A stretch of 8,761 nucleotides of DNA from a virus (taxonomy: Duplodnaviria; Heunggongvirae; Uroviricota; Caudoviricetes): the IMG/VR virus record IMGVR_UViG_2645727563_000007. One strand, written 5' to 3'. The position numbers and the translations under genes were made by a program. Within the stretch, counting starts at the first letter, position 1. The number at the start of each line of letters is the position of its first letter. The notes beneath the pieces are model-generated. The model saw only the letters and a program-made list of their open reading frames with translations. It was not told the origin of the DNA and made no database searches. This document shows, one piece after another, positions 2,327 to 8,549 of the stretch.

Positions 2327-2403
2327 TGGGTTTAATAATTGCTTGGACGCTGTTAGGGTTATTTGTTGGTTGCTGGATGGGTAACACAGTAAATAGAAAT
2401 TGA
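2326..2403 (+). CDS. small hydrophobic peptide, 25 aa (MGLIIAWTLLGLFVGCWMGNTVNRN), candidate
   Basis: ATG overlaps the stop of the 107-aa gene (TAATG at 2324-2328), suggesting translational coupling. One predicted transmembrane helix. Below the ORF-track length cutoff, so supported only by coupling and hydrophobicity. Confidence 0.3.
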   Translation: MGLIIAWTLLGLFVGCWMGNTVNRN

Positions 2404-2427
2404 TGTTACCAATCTGTTAAAAAGCTG

Positions 2428-2456
2428 TTGACAAATAACCTTGAGCATGACATAAT
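2428..2456 (+). promoter_or_regulatory. sigma70-type promoter: -35 TTGACA (2428-2433), 17-bp spacer, -10 CATAAT (2451-2456)
   Basis: Perfect -35, 17-bp spacer, 5/6 -10, preceded by an A-rich UP-like tract (TTAAAAAG). No long ORF follows for about 430 bp. Confidence 0.5.
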
Positions 2457-2658
2457 TGTATATATGAGGATAGTCTTCTATCCGAAGTCTATAGGGAGAG
2501 CAATTCTCCTTGAATTAAAATATTAATCGTCTCTACATCGATGATAACTATATTCTGAGTTGGAAAGGTGCAATGCTTTTCGTCATGGCCTTTCAGTTTA
2601 GTCTGAGAGGCTATCTCAAAAAGTGCTTAATCATTCATTATTGAACCCTTACAGCTTT

Positions 2659-2688
2659 GCCCTAACTCATGATTAGGGCGTTTTCTTT
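2659..2688 (+). terminator. intrinsic terminator: stem GCCCTAA / TTAGGGC, 7-nt loop, then GTTTTCTTT
   Basis: Perfect 7-bp stem (2659-2665 / 2673-2679) followed by a U-rich tract (2681-2688). Confidence 0.5.
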
Positions 2689-2757
2689 AAGAGTTTTTAA
2701 ACAGAGCTTTTAAAGAAAGTTTTTCCTGAAACTTCGTTAACGTTAAAGCAAACCTTC

Positions 2758-2794
2758 AAAGCCCTTTACAGATTCAATGTTTAGGGCTTTTCTT
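2758..2794 (+). terminator. second terminator-like hairpin: AAAGCCCT / AGGGCTTT, 17-nt loop, then TTTCTT
   Basis: 8-bp stem (2758-2765 / 2783-2790) with U-rich 3' side. The long loop lowers confidence. The 3' half (TTAGGGCTTTTCTTAATAGAG) is a diverged copy of the 2673-2697 terminator region. Confidence 0.3.
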
Positions 2795-2890
2795 AATAGA
2801 GCATCTTTAATAAATCGTTAAGTCATCTTCTAAGTGTATTGGCGTTGAAGGTGCTCTATTAAGAAATAACCACACTTAGAGGAAATTATA

Positions 2891-3601
2891 ATGGCCAACG
2901 ATATTTACATTAACGGTAAAAAGATTGATAGCTTCGGTGACTGGTCACCAACGACTGAACATCCAGCTATCACTATTCAGCGTCAAGAGCATGACAAGCG
3001 TATTAAGCTTGAGCAAGAAATCCGAATGTCACCAAAGGTAATTTCCTTTGTGACTCCTGAACCTCAAGAGATGCCCGATATCTGCAAGGGTGAATCACTA
3101 CTTGAGCTTGAAAAGAAATATTACCCACTGCTGAAAGCACAGCGTATTAAACTTGATGACGCTTACAGCAAAGTTACCTTGATGCAATCAGCTATTGAGC
3201 CGTCAGAATTTGAGATTCAGGATGAATTGTCACAGAAACCATTTGTCTATTACCAATACGAAGACAATGATGGTTTTGGTATTTATCCAGAAAGCATCCC
3301 AGCCGTGATTAGTAGTCTTCCTGATGGATATCGAATTGTGAAGATGGTTAAAGCTTCAAGGGGTGCTGGTCAGTTTGTTTACATGACCGATAAAAGCGAT
3401 GAAGAAGTCTGTGAAATTGCCAGACAGAACATCTTGGCATCACGTAACAAGCAGCTTGATAGTGCTAAGTTGTGTCTTTCAAGAGAGCTTCAGGCTATGA
3501 AAGAGCTTGTGAAAGAATATGAAGATGCTAAGAAGGTTGCTATGCAGGCTGATATTGAGCAGCTTACGAAGATTTCTCAGAAGTATAGCAAGGTACTTTA
3601 A
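2891..3601 (+). CDS. hypothetical protein, 236 aa, predicted coiled-coil C-terminal region
   Basis: ORF with SD AGAGGA (2878-2883) 7 nt upstream of ATG 2891. No family recognised. Confidence 0.6.
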   Translation: MANDIYINGKKIDSFGDWSPTTEHPAITIQRQEHDKRIKLEQEIRMSPKVISFVTPEPQEMPDICKGESLLELEKKYYPLLKAQRIKLDDAYSKVTLMQSAIEPSEFEIQDELSQKPFVYYQYEDNDGFGIYPESIPAVISSLPDGYRIVKMVKASRGAGQFVYMTDKSDEEVCEIARQNILASRNKQLDSAKLCLSRELQAMKELVKEYEDAKKVAMQADIEQLTKISQKYSKVL

Positions 3602-3625
3602 CTAATAATTAAAAGGAGGTGATGA

Positions 3626-3829
3626 ATGATTGATTTAACAGAACGCTATGAACTTATTAAAGCAATTAGCGAGAGATTGAAAGAACAACCCAACAAACCA
3701 AAACGAATCAAATCATCCACCTCTAGGCAAAATAGCAGAATCAGAAGAATCGCTAAATGGTGTCTTGATAAATTACCAAGTGATTGTCAGATTGTCGGTG
3801 AAGATGGTAATTATTATCTGGTTAGGTAA
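3626..3829 (+). CDS. hypothetical small basic protein, 67 aa
   Basis: Strong SD AAGGAGG (3613-3619) 6 nt upstream of ATG 3626. Lys/Arg-rich centre (KPKRIKSSTSRQNSRIRRIAKW) suggests nucleic-acid binding. No family recognised. Confidence 0.5.
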   Translation: MIDLTERYELIKAISERLKEQPNKPKRIKSSTSRQNSRIRRIAKWCLDKLPSDCQIVGEDGNYYLVR

Positions 3830-3855
3830 CAAGAATTGGTTGGGTAAAAATCAAC

Positions 3856-3896
3856 GGGAGAGATTATCGAGTGACATCGGTAGCTCTCCCTTTTTT
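3856..3896 (+). terminator. intrinsic terminator: GGGAGAG...CTCTCCC stem with inner TATCGA/TCGGTA pairing, then TTTTTTGT
   Basis: 7-bp GC-rich outer stem (3856-3862 / 3884-3890), an inner 6-bp helix (3865-3870 / 3877-3882, one G.U), and a T6 tract (3891-3896) directly after the 67-aa gene. Confidence 0.55.
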
Positions 3897-3926
3897 GTAT
3901 ATGAACACTTAAGAGGTGAAACATGA

Positions 3927-6059
3927 ATGAGCAAATTCACAGTTGATAGTTTTATCGTTGAGCTAGGCTTCAGCGAGAACGTTATTAAGGGCTTGCAAAG
4001 AGTTGAAAAGGCAGCTTTGCAGTCAGCACAAAGAATTGAAAAGAACCTAAATAAAGGTTTCAGGATTAATACAAAGCAGCTTGATAGTAATTTAACGGCT
4101 TCTTTAAAGTCAATGGAAGGGAAGATTAATAAGACCTTTGACCGTCTGGAAGCTAGAGCACGAAGCACAAAAGTTTTCCAGTTTACCACCAGATTTAATG
4201 ACACTGTTAATCCTCCAAAACAACCGAGACAGCCACGAATTAGCGGCAACAGAGCAATCACAGCAGCTTATTCAGCTAATATGACCAAGCTGAAAGGTCT
4301 TAACCCAATTGTCGAGAAATACATCAAATCTCAGTTTTACGGGCTATCTGCTAAAGCTGGGTCAATGGATAATTCAAAATTCAATGAGAAGTTGGCTCAA
4401 TTAAATGCTTCGGTCAGAGAAGCAATTGCTAAAGCCAGAGGCCATACATCCACCAGCATTAACGGTGACAGAGCAGCTAGCAGTCTTGATAATCTGTCTT
4501 TAGCGGCGGTTAAAACAGCAGGTGCATTTATCAGCTTTCAGGCTGTACTATCCGCTTATCAGCGAGTAATGGAAGTTGGCCTTCAACGTGCATCATCGGA
4601 AAGAAGTATTGATTTCGTATTCGGTGACCAAAGTACACAGGTCAAAAAGTTCATTCAAGATTTAACTCAGATTACTGGGATGGACACAACCGAAACACAA
4701 GCACAGTTTGCTTCATTTGGTGCATCTGCAAAGAACACGATGGGTCTTGAAGGGTCAGAAGAGTTATTTAAAAACCTTACAGGTTATGCTCGTTTAATGG
4801 GTCGTTCAGATGAGCAGATTCAAAGAGCATTAACCGCAGTGTCGCAGATGGCTTCTAAGGGTCAGGTGATGTCTGAGGAGCTGAAGGGGCAACTATCTGA
4901 AGCTTTACCGGGTGCTACTCAGGCATTTGCAAAGGCTTTAGGTCTGACTGAAAAACAGCTTTTCGATAAGATGAAAAATGGTGATGTTAAAGCCTCTGAT
5001 GCACTCCCTAAATTTGCTAAAGAACTTGGTTCACAGATTAATTCAAGAGGTGGCTGGAAAGCTATTCAGGACTCTACGCAGACAATGCTAGGGAACTTGA
5101 AGAATACTTGGAACAACTCACTAACGGATATTTTCAAAGGTTCTGAAGATGGTTTGCAGGACTTCACAAGAAGCTTGACCAATCTTTTAAACGCTCTTGG
5201 TGGAACTGGTAAAACATTAGGTGAAAGTTTTGGTAGCTTGATGACTGATATGTCACATGGTGTCGATTCATTGACTGATATTTCTTACAAGGTGAGAGCT
5301 TTCTTTGATGAGGTGACATTAGCTTACCGTTCACTAAATGACACTCAGAAAAAAATTGTTGACGGTTTATCTGATGGGTTAATTGATGGTTTGAAGATGC
5401 TTGCTGTAGCTGTTACTGCTCAAAAGGCTGCAAATGTAGCTGGAGGCTTGTTAAACCTTGCAAATGCTGTTACTTCATTCGGTGATGCTGTTAATAAAGC
5501 TAAAGCTGGCAAGGCTGGTTCTTCAGGTGGTGCGCTAAGTAAAGTCGGTAGAGTTGTCCTTTATGCTGAGTTGGTGAACTTTGCTCTTGATAATTTAAAC
5601 CCTGAAGCTGCTAAGAATCCGAACTTACATCAATCAGGTATTGGCACAGAAACAAACTTCAACCCTGAATACAAAGGCGATTCATCTAAACCAAACCAAA
5701 TTAATGAGGGATGGGCTAAGATTGGTAGTTCTATCGCTGACTGGTTTAATGGTGCAGCTAATAAAATTGCTAACTTCCAAGAGCCAATGAGTAACCTTGT
5801 TAATAACACACAATCAACTCCACCAGCTATCACAGGTGACATGGTTAATAGCAATGCTCAACTTGCAATGACTATTAGTGAACTATCACGCAAGGTAGAC
5901 GCTTTAACAGTAGAAGCTAAGAAGCCCTTGTCAGTTAATATCACTGGTGAAGCAACTGTTAGACCGGATGAACCAGCTTTCTTTAATTTCAGTCAATCGG
6001 CTAATGACCAGTTCACGCAGGATATGCTCTTAAGTTCAAGCTATCCAGAGGAAGAATGA
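3927..6059 (+). CDS. phage tail tape-measure-domain protein, 710 aa
   Basis: SD AAGAGGTG (3911-3918). Central segment ...QMASKGQVMSEELKGQLSEALPGATQAFAKALGLTEKQLFDKMKNGDVKASDALPKFAKELG... matches the conserved tape-measure motif. Predicted helical N-terminal part and Gly/Ala/Ser/Asn-rich C-terminal part are typical of these proteins. Confidence 0.8.
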   Translation: MSKFTVDSFIVELGFSENVIKGLQRVEKAALQSAQRIEKNLNKGFRINTKQLDSNLTASLKSMEGKINKTFDRLEARARSTKVFQFTTRFNDTVNPPKQPRQPRISGNRAITAAYSANMTKLKGLNPIVEKYIKSQFYGLSAKAGSMDNSKFNEKLAQLNASVREAIAKARGHTSTSINGDRAASSLDNLSLAAVKTAGAFISFQAVLSAYQRVMEVGLQRASSERSIDFVFGDQSTQVKKFIQDLTQITGMDTTETQAQFASFGASAKNTMGLEGSEELFKNLTGYARLMGRSDEQIQRALTAVSQMASKGQVMSEELKGQLSEALPGATQAFAKALGLTEKQLFDKMKNGDVKASDALPKFAKELGSQINSRGGWKAIQDSTQTMLGNLKNTWNNSLTDIFKGSEDGLQDFTRSLTNLLNALGGTGKTLGESFGSLMTDMSHGVDSLTDISYKVRAFFDEVTLAYRSLNDTQKKIVDGLSDGLIDGLKMLAVAVTAQKAANVAGGLLNLANAVTSFGDAVNKAKAGKAGSSGGALSKVGRVVLYAELVNFALDNLNPEAAKNPNLHQSGIGTETNFNPEYKGDSSKPNQINEGWAKIGSSIADWFNGAANKIANFQEPMSNLVNNTQSTPPAITGDMVNSNAQLAMTISELSRKVDALTVEAKKPLSVNITGEATVRPDEPAFFNFSQSANDQFTQDMLLSSSYPEEE

Positions 6060-6072
6060 TTTCTTATATATC

Positions 6073-6137
6073 CGTGTGCTACGTGAAATCTTCTGAACAG
6101 ATATACCCACCAAAAATTATTTTTTACGTAGCTCACG
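6073..6137. repeat. imperfect inverted repeat: 16-nt arms (6073-6088 / 6122-6137) around a 33-nt spacer
   Basis: CGTGTGCTACGTGAAA and TTTTACGTAGCTCACG pair at 15 of 16 positions (one U.U mismatch, one G.U); located just downstream of the tape-measure stop codon. Confidence 0.5.
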
Positions 6138-6158
6138 CTTAACAGAGAAAATACATAT

Positions 6159-6208
6159 ATTTCAAAGGCTTGGTTAAAAATGATTAAAATACACTAAGCC
6201 TTTGAAAT
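6159..6208. repeat. perfect 13-bp inverted repeat ATTTCAAAGGCTT / AAGCCTTTGAAAT (extendable to 16 bp), ending 2 nt before the next gene's SD
   Basis: Arms at 6159-6171 and 6196-6208 are exact reverse complements; three further pairs (one G.U) extend the helix; SD AAGGAG at 6211-6216. Confidence 0.55.
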
Positions 6209-6222
6209 CAAAGGAGAATTTA

Positions 6223-6996
6223 ATGATTTACTCTAATCAGATTCGTTACAGTGGCAAAGATGGCATCTATTTCCACTTAAGAGATAATGTAGATGCCTTC
6301 TTAACCTTATCAGCAACTGAAAATATGGAATTTGACAGCCCTATGCAGGTAACTACACAGAACATGCAATCAGGGCAAACCGTTACAGATAATGTGCAAA
6401 GAGCACCCAGAACAATCACTATTAGTGGTGTCGTTGTAGTTGGCTATGAAGGAAGCTTATTATTAACTCGTCAGGGTCAATTAGTAGAAAACTTCATTGA
6501 CACTCTCGAAAGCTGGCGTGACCAGAAGCAAATTATTTCGGTTATCTGTAAGGACGGAATTAAAATTGATGATTCCATTATTACGAGTTTTAAAGCCTCT
6601 AAAGATGTTGGAATTTCAAATGGTCTAAGAATCCAGCTAACTTTTCAGGAAATTAACTTCAAAGCCATTGTAGGGCAAACTGATGTTTCAGCAGCTACTG
6701 GCAAAACTGCTACCACGAATGACGGTGGTGCTACCAGTAAGAAGAATGCGGGTAACGTGACTACTGAACGCAATAACGCACCTATGCTGATGTGTCAGGA
6801 ACTGTACAGTTACTCAGCATCTGAGCTATCTGATGAAGCGCTAAGGGTCCGTAGCAATTGCTCTAAAAATGTCACGGTGAAAGATGGTGTAAGCACCTTC
6901 ACAGCCTCAGCTAATGAGCAGGCTTCAAAAGTGCTTAAGTCGGGTAATGCTTTACGGAAGTTTTCTGTGAATCCGAATAAGAAGGGCACTTATTGA
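6223..6996 (+). CDS. hypothetical protein, 257 aa; by position possibly a distal tail (Dit-like) protein
   Basis: Start set at ATG 6223 with SD AAGGAG (6211-6216) rather than the track's TTG 6202. Immediately follows the tape-measure gene, the usual position of Dit in siphovirus tail modules; sequence looks beta-rich. Function is inferred from position only. Confidence 0.55.
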
Positions 6997-7028: not shown

Positions 7029-8549
7029 TTACAGTTGATAAGCGTCAATATCCAGTAGCTCTTTATCAGCAATTTCAAAGATTGGTGACCCATCATTTAG
7101 CGGTAACGGGTTTGTAGGTATGGTGATTTCAGTGTCGTTCTGTAGCGTTACAGTTACCGAATCCTTACCCAATGTAAGCCCTTTTAGATGCTTGGACAAA
7201 ATCAACTGACACTCGACACGACCCACTTTAGTTGTCAGGTCAATATCTTTAAGCTGGGGTAGTTCCTTATCAGTGAGTGAAGCCTTACGCCTCATGTTAT
7301 CAATCGTGGTCTGTAGCTCTGTGCGCTTCTGGTTCAGTTCCTTAAGCTGAATTTTTAGTTCATCAATATCATCCATCTCAAGAAGTAGGGCGGTAGCTTT
7401 CTTGATTCTGGTTGTGACAATTTCAACCTCATGCTGTAGAGATGCAATCTCCCCCTCTGCTTCTCCATCATTCCCCACGTCAATCATTCCTAGAAAATTT
7501 TCAAGCATCCACTTATCAAACGGTTTACGCTTCAACGGAGGAACATCACAGCGACCATCAAGATGGTTATTGCACCGATAAACGCCCTGATACTTATTCT
7601 TAGTCCCTGTAGGGTGAACACTAGCCCCGCACTGACACCTAAACAGACCTTTGAAGATGTTAATCGTTAATGGATTATCACTTGCAGGTGTACGGCCTAT
7701 ACGGTTCTTACCAAGAATCTCTTGAGCTTTATTGAACGTTGAAGCATCTATAGCGGCTTCGTAGTAGTTCGGTATAGCGGGGCGGTCATTACGTTGTGAT
7801 GCTGGTAACGTGCCTATCGTTGTCTCTGACCTTAAGATGGTGCGTACAGAGTGAACACTAAACCCGTTAGCATCTTTACGGCGACTAAACGACTTTATAC
7901 CGTTGCTTTGAAGGTGACGGGCGATGTTATGCAGACTTTCACCACTTAGCAGCAGCTTGAAAATCAGTCTTACAGTCTCAGCGTGTTCATTGCACTTGAA
8001 AGTATCGGGGTCAATCCATCCGGGAACATTTCTTGTAAGACGCTGTTCACCAGCAAGGGCAAGCTTTGCACGTTGTTCCCATTTCTGACTAACACGGAAA
8101 GACTTCTGTTTACTCTCCTGATGCGCTATGTAGCTTTTAACCCGCTGAATGATTGAGATTCCTAAATCATCGGATAGAGCATCCCTTGTGTAGATTAGCC
8201 CATCCTGTAGAGTGTGAATCTCGATACCATGAGCAATAATGCGATTCATCAAGGCTTCTGTTTCAAGATGTTCAAGGCGGCCTATGCGGTCGATAGCTTC
8301 GACTAACAGAACTGTACCTTCTGAAAACTCCCCACTTTCAATACGGGAAAGCATATCCCCAAATTGCCCTGACAAGTGCTTACCTTTGTAACCGGATAGA
8401 CCCTCATCATTGAAAGATGCTACTACTTGAGCATCGCTATTCTTCTTCAACCATTGTTTGAACAGGTCGTTTTGTCGTCTGGTTGAATCTGCACCTTCAG
8501 CGCCTTGTATGGCTGAACTGTACCGAAGGTATGTAATTACGTGTCTCAT
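7029..8549 (-). CDS. large serine recombinase (serine integrase), 506 aa
   Basis: N-terminal resolvase-type catalytic domain (YLRYSSAIQ with the catalytic Ser; DEGLSGYKG; LLVEAIDRIGR), followed by a recombinase domain, a Cys-rich zinc-ribbon (FRCQCGASVHPTG...YRCNNHLDGRCD) and a C-terminal coiled-coil. SD GGGAG (revcomp of 8559-8563) 9 nt upstream of ATG. Confidence 0.9.
   Translation of the reverse strand: MRHVITYLRYSSAIQGAEGADSTRRQNDLFKQWLKKNSDAQVVASFNDEGLSGYKGKHLSGQFGDMLSRIESGEFSEGTVLLVEAIDRIGRLEHLETEALMNRIIAHGIEIHTLQDGLIYTRDALSDDLGISIIQRVKSYIAHQESKQKSFRVSQKWEQRAKLALAGEQRLTRNVPGWIDPDTFKCNEHAETVRLIFKLLLSGESLHNIARHLQSNGIKSFSRRKDANGFSVHSVRTILRSETTIGTLPASQRNDRPAIPNYYEAAIDASTFNKAQEILGKNRIGRTPASDNPLTINIFKGLFRCQCGASVHPTGTKNKYQGVYRCNNHLDGRCDVPPLKRKPFDKWMLENFLGMIDVGNDGEAEGEIASLQHEVEIVTTRIKKATALLLEMDDIDELKIQLKELNQKRTELQTTIDNMRRKASLTDKELPQLKDIDLTTKVGRVECQLILSKHLKGLTLGKDSVTVTLQNDTEITIPTNPLPLNDGSPIFEIADKELLDIDAYQL

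Follow-up and report, generated by a model that had tools for sequence, protein, structure and literature searches.

The question raised by this locus is whether, in a phage-derived Escherichia island, a gene of 236 codons has its Shine-Dalgarno (SD) sequence masked by its own untranslated leader and, if so, by which structure this would be achieved and how the mask would be lifted. The window is the whole stretch of DNA that was analysed, 8,761 nt of the IMG/VR record IMGVR_UViG_2645727563_000007 (Caudoviricetes), and all coordinates refer to it except where another locus is named. An earlier note on this DNA, made from the letters alone, had proposed that the leader can sequester the complete SD in a pseudoknot-like arrangement of two interleaved helices, and had named temperature, a protein or an sRNA as possible controlling agents.

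Results

The island and the genes behind the leader

The window corresponds to an Escherichia chromosomal island adjoining tonB, which in strain E8 lies between yciI and tonB. This phage-derived island occurs in about one tenth of E. coli genomes, and the region carrying a leader of type A or B (the types are defined below) was present in 444 of 5426 complete ones. The literature on the identity of the island, including its position at tonB/yciI, yielded no specific description. Several of the island proteins could not be assigned a function by family matches. The whole island in strain E8 (locus L001, positions 5441-16482) spans approximately 11 kb and contains two serine recombinases, a DNA adenine methyltransferase, an HNH endonuclease and only three tail genes of the Felixounavirus type; the large serine recombinase is encoded in the window at 7029-8549 on the minus strand.

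The 236-aa gene (2891-3601, plus strand, from the list of open reading frames) is the first gene after the leader. It is followed on the same strand by genes spanning 3626-6996, of which the first encodes 67 aa and the others include those for a tape measure protein (3927-6059) and a Dit-like tail protein (6202-6996), both recognised by PHROG and Pfam matches and both related to Felixounavirus tail genes. Parts of 3918-6756 show 93-98% nucleotide identity to lytic Felixounavirus phages, and the order of the tail genes matches that of phage garuso. The island may be a satellite of Felixounavirus phages or an element interfering with their tail assembly. Between the 67-aa gene and the tape measure gene there is a terminator-like hairpin, GGGAGAG...CTCTCCC followed by TTTTTT (3856-3898), which is the third such structure counted from the promoter described below.

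The 236-aa protein itself gave no match in Pfam, NCBIfam, PHROG or PADLOC and none by tblastn against phages, and no DNA similar to 2330-3700 was found in phages. Its AlphaFold model is mostly helical and of low confidence (pLDDT 65.8), with no match in BFVD at E <= 0.001. The family comprises 3158 clusters at 90% identity, nearly all of them from Escherichia, and is very variable. The label "transposase" given to its relatives by RefSeq/PGAP was not adopted, as it finds no support in Pfam, NCBIfam, PHROG or PADLOC.

For comparison, the leader was collected from 26 genomes of E. coli, from two further Escherichia species and from contigs, of which 80 are metagenomic and 6 belong to IMG/VR, giving 79 distinct leader versions that fall into five hairpin types (A to E), the window being of type A. 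Types A and B are common, and types C and E were each seen once; no type C leader was found in complete E. coli genomes. A query with the type D leader returned 81 genome matches, and the nine that were fetched proved to be a mix of types D, B and E. Note that some complete E. coli genomes carry two to three copies of the region, and that on the metagenome contig OOBX01000469.1 two copies of the 236-aa gene region (L038 and L040) lie about 11.5 kb apart.

Promoter, terminators and structured leader

The non-coding region 5' of the 236-aa gene is 565 nt long. It contains a sigma-70 promoter on the plus strand at 2428-2456, consisting of TTGACA, a 17-nt spacer and an extended -10 element TG-n-CATAAT (11/12 in the promoter scan), and its sequence is invariant in all 20 aligned loci. 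Judging from the promoter position, the transcript would start near 2463, so that the leader (2463-2890) would be about 430 nt long. The leader is strongly structured: its minimum free energy is -139.6 kcal/mol, against -91.3 +/- 5.5 for shuffled sequences (z -8.75). Its upstream part (2463-2790) is a chain of hairpins that co-vary between loci, for instance 2493-2511 and 2585-2614, and it is modular, with insertions and deletions of hairpin size; a 27-nt hairpin at 2462-2488 may be present or absent, and in other loci a 28-nt hairpin is inserted after approximately 2567.

Two of these structures resemble intrinsic terminators on the plus strand. The one at 2658-2688, found by the terminator scan, is a hairpin followed by a T tract and belongs to a module of about 110 nt, which some loci lack. 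The loop of this hairpin (2658-2680) is inverted between alleles, being CTCATGA in the window and TCATGAG in most others, while its stem is unchanged. The other, at 2758-2794, was found by the inverted-repeat search (AAAGCCCT...AGGGCTTT, followed by TTTTCTT); its stem is kept in all leader types, its loop varies from 7 to 45 nt, and its T tract doubles as the lowest part of the long hairpin's 5' arm (see the next section). A strong constitutive promoter followed by terminators resembles the control region of a late operon that needs antitermination, and the conserved promoter together with the two terminators and the third one further downstream fits a normally silent operon. A candidate leader peptide (2777-2821), which would run into the 5' arm of the long hairpin, was rejected: it has no SD, its ATG is absent in several alleles, and its frame shifts with the length of the T run.

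A long hairpin conserved as RNA

The segments 2789-2810 and 2845-2866 form an inverted repeat with 22-nt arms that are 91% complementary, both of the two mismatches being T.G. On the plus-strand transcript they would give a long hairpin (2789-2866) with a 22-bp stem and an apical domain at 2811-2844. The second helix of the earlier note, AATAGAGCATC (2795-2805) with GGTGCTCTATT (2850-2860), was recovered both by direct reading and by the inverted-repeat search exactly as described (11 bp, one G.U, interleaved with the SD pairing), and it turned out to be the inner half of this 22-bp stem. The region 2790-2900 folds with -33.8 kcal/mol, against -16.8 +/- 3.2 for shuffled sequences (z -5.35, 0 of 200 reaching it), into 21 bp, a 5-nt bulge, 6 bp, a weak 3-bp stem and a 7-nt loop CUUCUAA.

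The terminator scan did not report the long hairpin on either strand, and its role as an intrinsic terminator was rejected, the stem being A-U-rich and followed by AAGAAATAACC with no U tract. In Rfam the window gave no match at E <= 1, including the C4 (RF01695), ROSE, FourU and Lambda_thermo models, and the C4 and thermometer models were likewise unmatched at E <= 1 in loci of types B to E. In the loci of other types, the sole hits were eukaryotic miRNA precursors scoring below threshold, as a long hairpin will produce by chance.

The sequence of the stem differs between the types, and the stem itself is kept. RNAalifold gave 19 consensus pairs, 10 of them with compensatory changes. When the arms were set out in an ungapped table anchored on the conserved AGC/GCT, pairing extended over 26 columns in all five types. 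Of the cells, 98.3% are paired, as compared with 85.2% after shuffling of the partners (0 of 500 shuffles reaching the observed value) and with 41-52% when the partners were slid by one to three columns. Wobble cells are 60 G.U and only 3 A.C, which argues for a structure of the plus-strand RNA and not for a DNA palindrome. These comparisons show the predicted long hairpin to be a conserved structure of the plus-strand RNA. Among 28 distinct stem versions from the five types, invariance is confined to one U-A pair in the lower stem and to a trio, A-U, G-C and C-G (2800-2802 with GCT at 2853-2855), which in every type is located 11-13 bp down from the stem top. Stem length is 22-23 bp in type A, and the other types have stems of 21-30 bp.

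Complementarity between the hairpin tip and the SD

The pairing at the centre of the earlier note was confirmed by direct reading and by the inverted-repeat search: TCTTCTAAGTGT (2826-2837) is complementary to ACACTTAGAGGA (2872-2883) over 12 positions with one G.U (T2828.G2881). The upstream segment, further called the anti-SD, comprises the apical loop CUUCUAA (2827-2833) and the 3' side of the weak 3-bp stem. The downstream segment includes the entire SD, AGAGGA (2878-2883) with the core GAGG at 2879-2882, and 7 nt separate it from the ATG at 2891-2893, likewise as the note had it. For a 22-nt segment with the SD against the upstream 103 nt, the best duplex has -17.3 kcal/mol, compared with -9.5 +/- 2.2 for dinucleotide shuffles, and this value was reached by 2 of 1000 shuffles in one series and by 0 of 300 in another. 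Among ten gene starts in the window, 2891 is the only annotated one with such a duplex; the other low value, at 6202, probably reflects a terminator hairpin and not a true start.

The same relation was found throughout the collection. When the 24 nt before the start codon were compared with the apical region of the same leader, the tip of the hairpin was complementary to its own SD in all 79. The best duplexes comprise 8-20 bp with energies of -13.1 to -19.9 kcal/mol; in 78 leaders they include the complete four-nucleotide SD core, and in the last one three of its nucleotides. Complementarity is achieved by two unrelated pairings, UCUUCUAAG with CUUAGA(AGA)GGA and UUCACCUC with GAGGUGAA. In types A and B the anti-SD is UCUUCUAAG(U), the SD side is (A)CUUAGAGGA in A and ACUUAGAAGAGG in B, and the helix extends 5' of the SD core; in types C, D and E the anti-SD is (A/C)UUCACCUC(U/G), the SD side is (A/U)GAGGUGAA(U), and the helix extends 3' of the core. 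The segment TCTTCTAAGT is invariant in types A and B save for one variant, though the stem around it differs; types C, D and E have TTCACCTC in its place, and the SD changes along with it. Type B has, in addition, a 3-nt insertion that shifts the register, so that the preceding UC/CC covers the GG.

Duplex energies were used for the SD helix because the two classes are out of register in the MAFFT alignment. In the cross-type matrix, cognate and same-class combinations gave -12.7 to -18.2 kcal/mol, whereas combinations across the classes gave -6.2 to -10.7 kcal/mol, that is, the shuffle background of about -9.5 to -10.5. The observed duplex was reached by 2, 14, 54 and 49 of 1000 shuffles for types A, B, C and D, respectively, and its partner was always the hairpin tip; as conserved alternative partners of the anti-SD, the upstream leader and the first 150 nt of the gene offered only weak, non-conserved duplexes. 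Changes within a type mostly keep the pairing through G.U (for instance in loci L100 and L047), and in L021 and L028 the helix is weakened with no compensation. Few independent events underlie the co-variation of this helix: the class switched once, the register shifted once by 3 nt, and a few changes involve G.U. In types C to E, the CACCUC loop resembles the 3' end of 16S rRNA and would therefore pair with any strong SD; in types A and B the pairing reaches into CUUAG, outside the SD, and this extension is conserved.

At the level of sequence, then, the complementarity between anti-SD and SD is shown to be conserved and to co-vary between two classes. Since it is present with respect to the own SD in every version, co-varies with the class and falls to background across the classes, the predicted masking of the SD is regarded as real and under selection.

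Can the stem and the SD helix coexist?

The long stem (2789-2810/2845-2866) and the SD helix (2826-2837/2872-2883) interleave in the arrangement of an H-type pseudoknot. With the long stem kept intact, formation of the SD helix is energetically favourable: once the opening of the two strands is paid for, hybridisation still yields a net -8.4 to -13.1 kcal/mol, a figure that includes no pseudoknot penalty. Between the base of the stem and the SD helix, type A has a linker of 4-8 nt and type B one of 5-16 nt; in type C it is about 19 nt long, and the A-rich linker of type D measures 29-36 nt. From these lengths, 4-16 nt would probably be too short to span a stem of 22-27 bp, and a simple pseudoknot made of the complete stem and the complete SD helix is probably impossible in type A; the two may be mutually exclusive in types A and B owing to the short linker. 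For the SD helix to form in type A, either the A-U-rich lower stem would have to fray, which would leave the 11-bp helix originally described, or the tip would have to act once it has been cut off.

So, the pseudoknot geometry of the earlier note holds as far as the interleaving of the helices is concerned, but its second helix is a 22-bp stem instead of 11 bp, and the linker is only 4-8 nt. Similarly, its claim that the leader masks its own SD is borne out by the complementarity in all versions and by the class co-variation, but the nested minimum-free-energy fold of 2790-2900, dominated by the long hairpin, leaves the SD single-stranded.

Discussion

A proposed translational lock, probably released at the long stem

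The reading that we favour, and consider reasonably probable, is that the element is a cis-acting translational lock in the leader of the island's tail-gene operon, and that RNase III, or a factor that controls how accessible the stem is, releases it. Transcripts that read through the two upstream terminators would fold into the long hairpin (22 bp here, 21-30 bp in the relatives), and the apical loop would offer the anti-SD, which would pair with the SD of the 236-aa gene and thereby block binding of the 30S subunit. The pairing is expected to repress translation. When the first gene of an operon is not translated, Rho-dependent polarity lowers the expression of the downstream genes; polarity from an untranslated 236-aa gene would probably lower expression of the tape measure and Dit-like proteins.

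As for the release, E. coli RNase III acts on substrates of about 22 bp by a double cut, and in vivo a G-C or C-G pair is usually found between the two cuts (PMC6212723). The stem conforms to the rule of about 22 bp of near-continuous dsRNA (22-23 bp in type A, 21-30 bp in the others), and the invariant G-C and C-G at its centre, 11-13 bp from the top, are compatible with the rule for the pair between the cuts, the cut positions themselves being putative. Because the stem is far longer than the display of a loop needs and has an invariant G-C/C-G centre, it is a candidate RNase III site, and, to judge by its shape alone, this is what the long stem with the invariant centre most likely is. Cleavage at the invariant A-U/G-C/C-G centre, near 2801/2802 and 2853-2855, would sever the tip with the anti-SD and leave about 36 nt of unstructured leader with the SD free. 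Were cleavage by RNase III constitutive, the lock could work as a switch only with a further layer of control. Of the controlling agents named in the earlier note, temperature is unlikely and no separate sRNA gene was seen; release by a protein, or through RNase III processing, is more plausible.

Alternative explanations

The main rival of the cis-acting lock is that the hairpin is the precursor of a trans-acting antisense RNA: RNase III would free an apical stem-loop of about 50 nt, which would repress the SD of the 236-aa gene in trans as an immunity RNA like P1 c4 or P4 CI, the anti-SD classes being its specificity types. A cut at the invariant centre would indeed free a stable hairpin bearing the anti-SD, and the difficulty of the short linker in types A and B would disappear; the two classes do not cross-react, some genomes have two to three copies of the region (one contig with two, 11.5 kb apart), and RNase III-processed sRNAs are known. 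At the same time, the hairpin has neither a promoter nor a terminator of its own in the scans, it would be made 1:1 with its target as part of the same transcript, and it does not match the Rfam C4 model. We regard this reading as unlikely, and the present data do not separate it from the cis-acting lock. Its more specific form, in which the ~50-nt species is the immunity RNA of an island that parasitises Felixounavirus phages and silences the tail operon through the first SD, is likewise unlikely. If it were true, the anti-SD classes would be immunity specificities that let variants of the island coexist in one genome, and c4-like logic would have been realised on an unrelated RNA with a different processing enzyme. 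Release by a protein other than RNase III is doubtful too; here the hairpin would be bound by an RNA-binding protein, encoded by the island or by a helper phage, with the effect of exposing the SD (compare Com on Mu mom) or of stabilising its masked form (compare S15 on rpsO). It would account for a patch that stays invariant within an otherwise co-varying stem, it suits the kinship of the island with Felixounavirus tail genes and its probable activation upon infection, and several island proteins have no known function; yet no candidate RNA-binding protein was identified, and RNase III explains the invariant patch equally well.

The remaining explanations deny the loop-SD pairing its effect, or assign it to temperature or to the DNA. 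That the hairpin is only an element of processing or stability, with a complementarity of no regulatory consequence, would agree with the free SD in the nested minimum-free-energy fold and with the fact that long stems alone suffice as RNase III sites, but it is hard to reconcile with a complementarity that is kept in all 79 leaders of five types, switches together with the SD and is significant against shuffles in each type tested; it is regarded as improbable. An RNA thermometer, in which the SD helix melts at host body temperature, is suggested by types A and B, where the strand opposite the SD is rich in U and some of the pairs are G.U. FourU and ROSE elements are usually far less stable than the helices found here, which have 8-13 contiguous bp and -13 to -19.9 kcal/mol; types C to E, moreover, pair through the G-C-rich CACCUC, and no thermometer family of Rfam was matched, which leaves this explanation highly improbable. 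Finally, the arms are long inverted repeats and the homology of the alleles breaks near them, as could be expected of a protein-binding or recombination site acting at the DNA level and not as RNA. Such a site scarcely deserves credence, given that the arm sequences differ between the types with their complementarity kept, that the mismatches are nearly all T.G on the plus strand (A.C on the other, 60 against 3), and that the apical segment is never inverted in the 79 versions.

Relation to known regulatory leaders

In the phage lambda N-leader and the E. coli adhE 5' UTR, a hairpin stands just 5' of the SD, and RNase III cleavage removes the structure that hinders the ribosome. The present leader is alike in having a long hairpin directly 5' of the SD, with cleavage proposed from its shape; it differs in that the inhibitor would be the anti-SD of the apical loop pairing at a distance, and there is no sequence similarity to either of these leaders. 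With the c4 RNA of P1/P7 and the CI RNA of P4 it shares a stem-loop that precedes its own target within one transcript of a mobile element, a loop complementary to the downstream ribosome-binding site and the silencing of an operon by polarity from a block of its first gene. Unlike the present element, for which the covariance model (Rfam C4, RF01695) is unmatched and the release of the hairpin is putative, c4 and CI are matured by RNase P and adopt another fold, in which two loops bind the target.

Fold-back inhibition in IS10, and the sequestration of the ribosome-binding site in early T4 transcripts of e, soc and I-TevI, are relieved by a promoter inside the hairpin. Similarly to these systems, transcripts from far upstream would carry the sequence that pairs with the ribosome-binding site, and read-through transcripts would be translationally silent. 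In contrast to them, no promoter was found here between the anti-SD and the SD: an internal promoter of the T4 e/soc kind was rejected, the scan giving no sigma-70 match in this interval, and a T4-late-like TATAAAT occurs only in some type D alleles. The Felix O1 paper reports no phage-specific promoter.

The pseudoknots of rpsO (regulated by S15) and of IncI-alpha repZ have short stems, and that of repZ activates translation. In both, as here, a hairpin loop pairs at or beside the downstream ribosome-binding site, but the stem of the present element has 21-30 bp and its pairing covers the SD core. FourU and ROSE elements likewise pair the SD with a pyrimidine-rich strand including G.U; the helix considered here is much longer and more stable, is carried on a long stem and has no match in Rfam. 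As judged by sequence, the element would function like known leaders with SD masking and RNase III control, and it lies outside C4, ROSE, FourU and the other curated families. What is unusual is the architecture, that is, an anti-SD on a stem of 21-30 bp, two interchangeable specificity classes and a mosaic leader, in an island related to Felixounavirus.

The element is a conserved structured RNA that has no Rfam family and was previously undescribed, although the kind of mechanism is ordinary, SD masking being well known. It would, as the proposed lock, gate the first gene of an operon with Felixounavirus-type tape measure and tail genes, and the island that contains this operon is very variable. 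Should the lock prove true, it would provide a handle on how an island silences and then switches on phage-like structural genes, and a clear natural case of an anti-SD presented on an RNase III-type stem in two specificity classes.

Two further observations concern the surroundings of the element. A copy of the anti-SD word with one mismatch, TCTTCTAAGC, is present on the minus strand at 6260-6269 of locus L001 in strain E8, where it is intergenic, between the small recombinase and the methyltransferase of the island. Additionally, upstream of the promoter an unannotated open reading frame of 25 codons (2326-2403), whose ATG overlaps the stop codon of a 107-aa gene (TAATG), encodes the hydrophobic peptide MGLIIAWTLLGLFVGCWMGNTVNRN; other loci have a second allelic form of it, MELVIICFVLIGMIAGASIKV, which suggests that it is a real small membrane protein.
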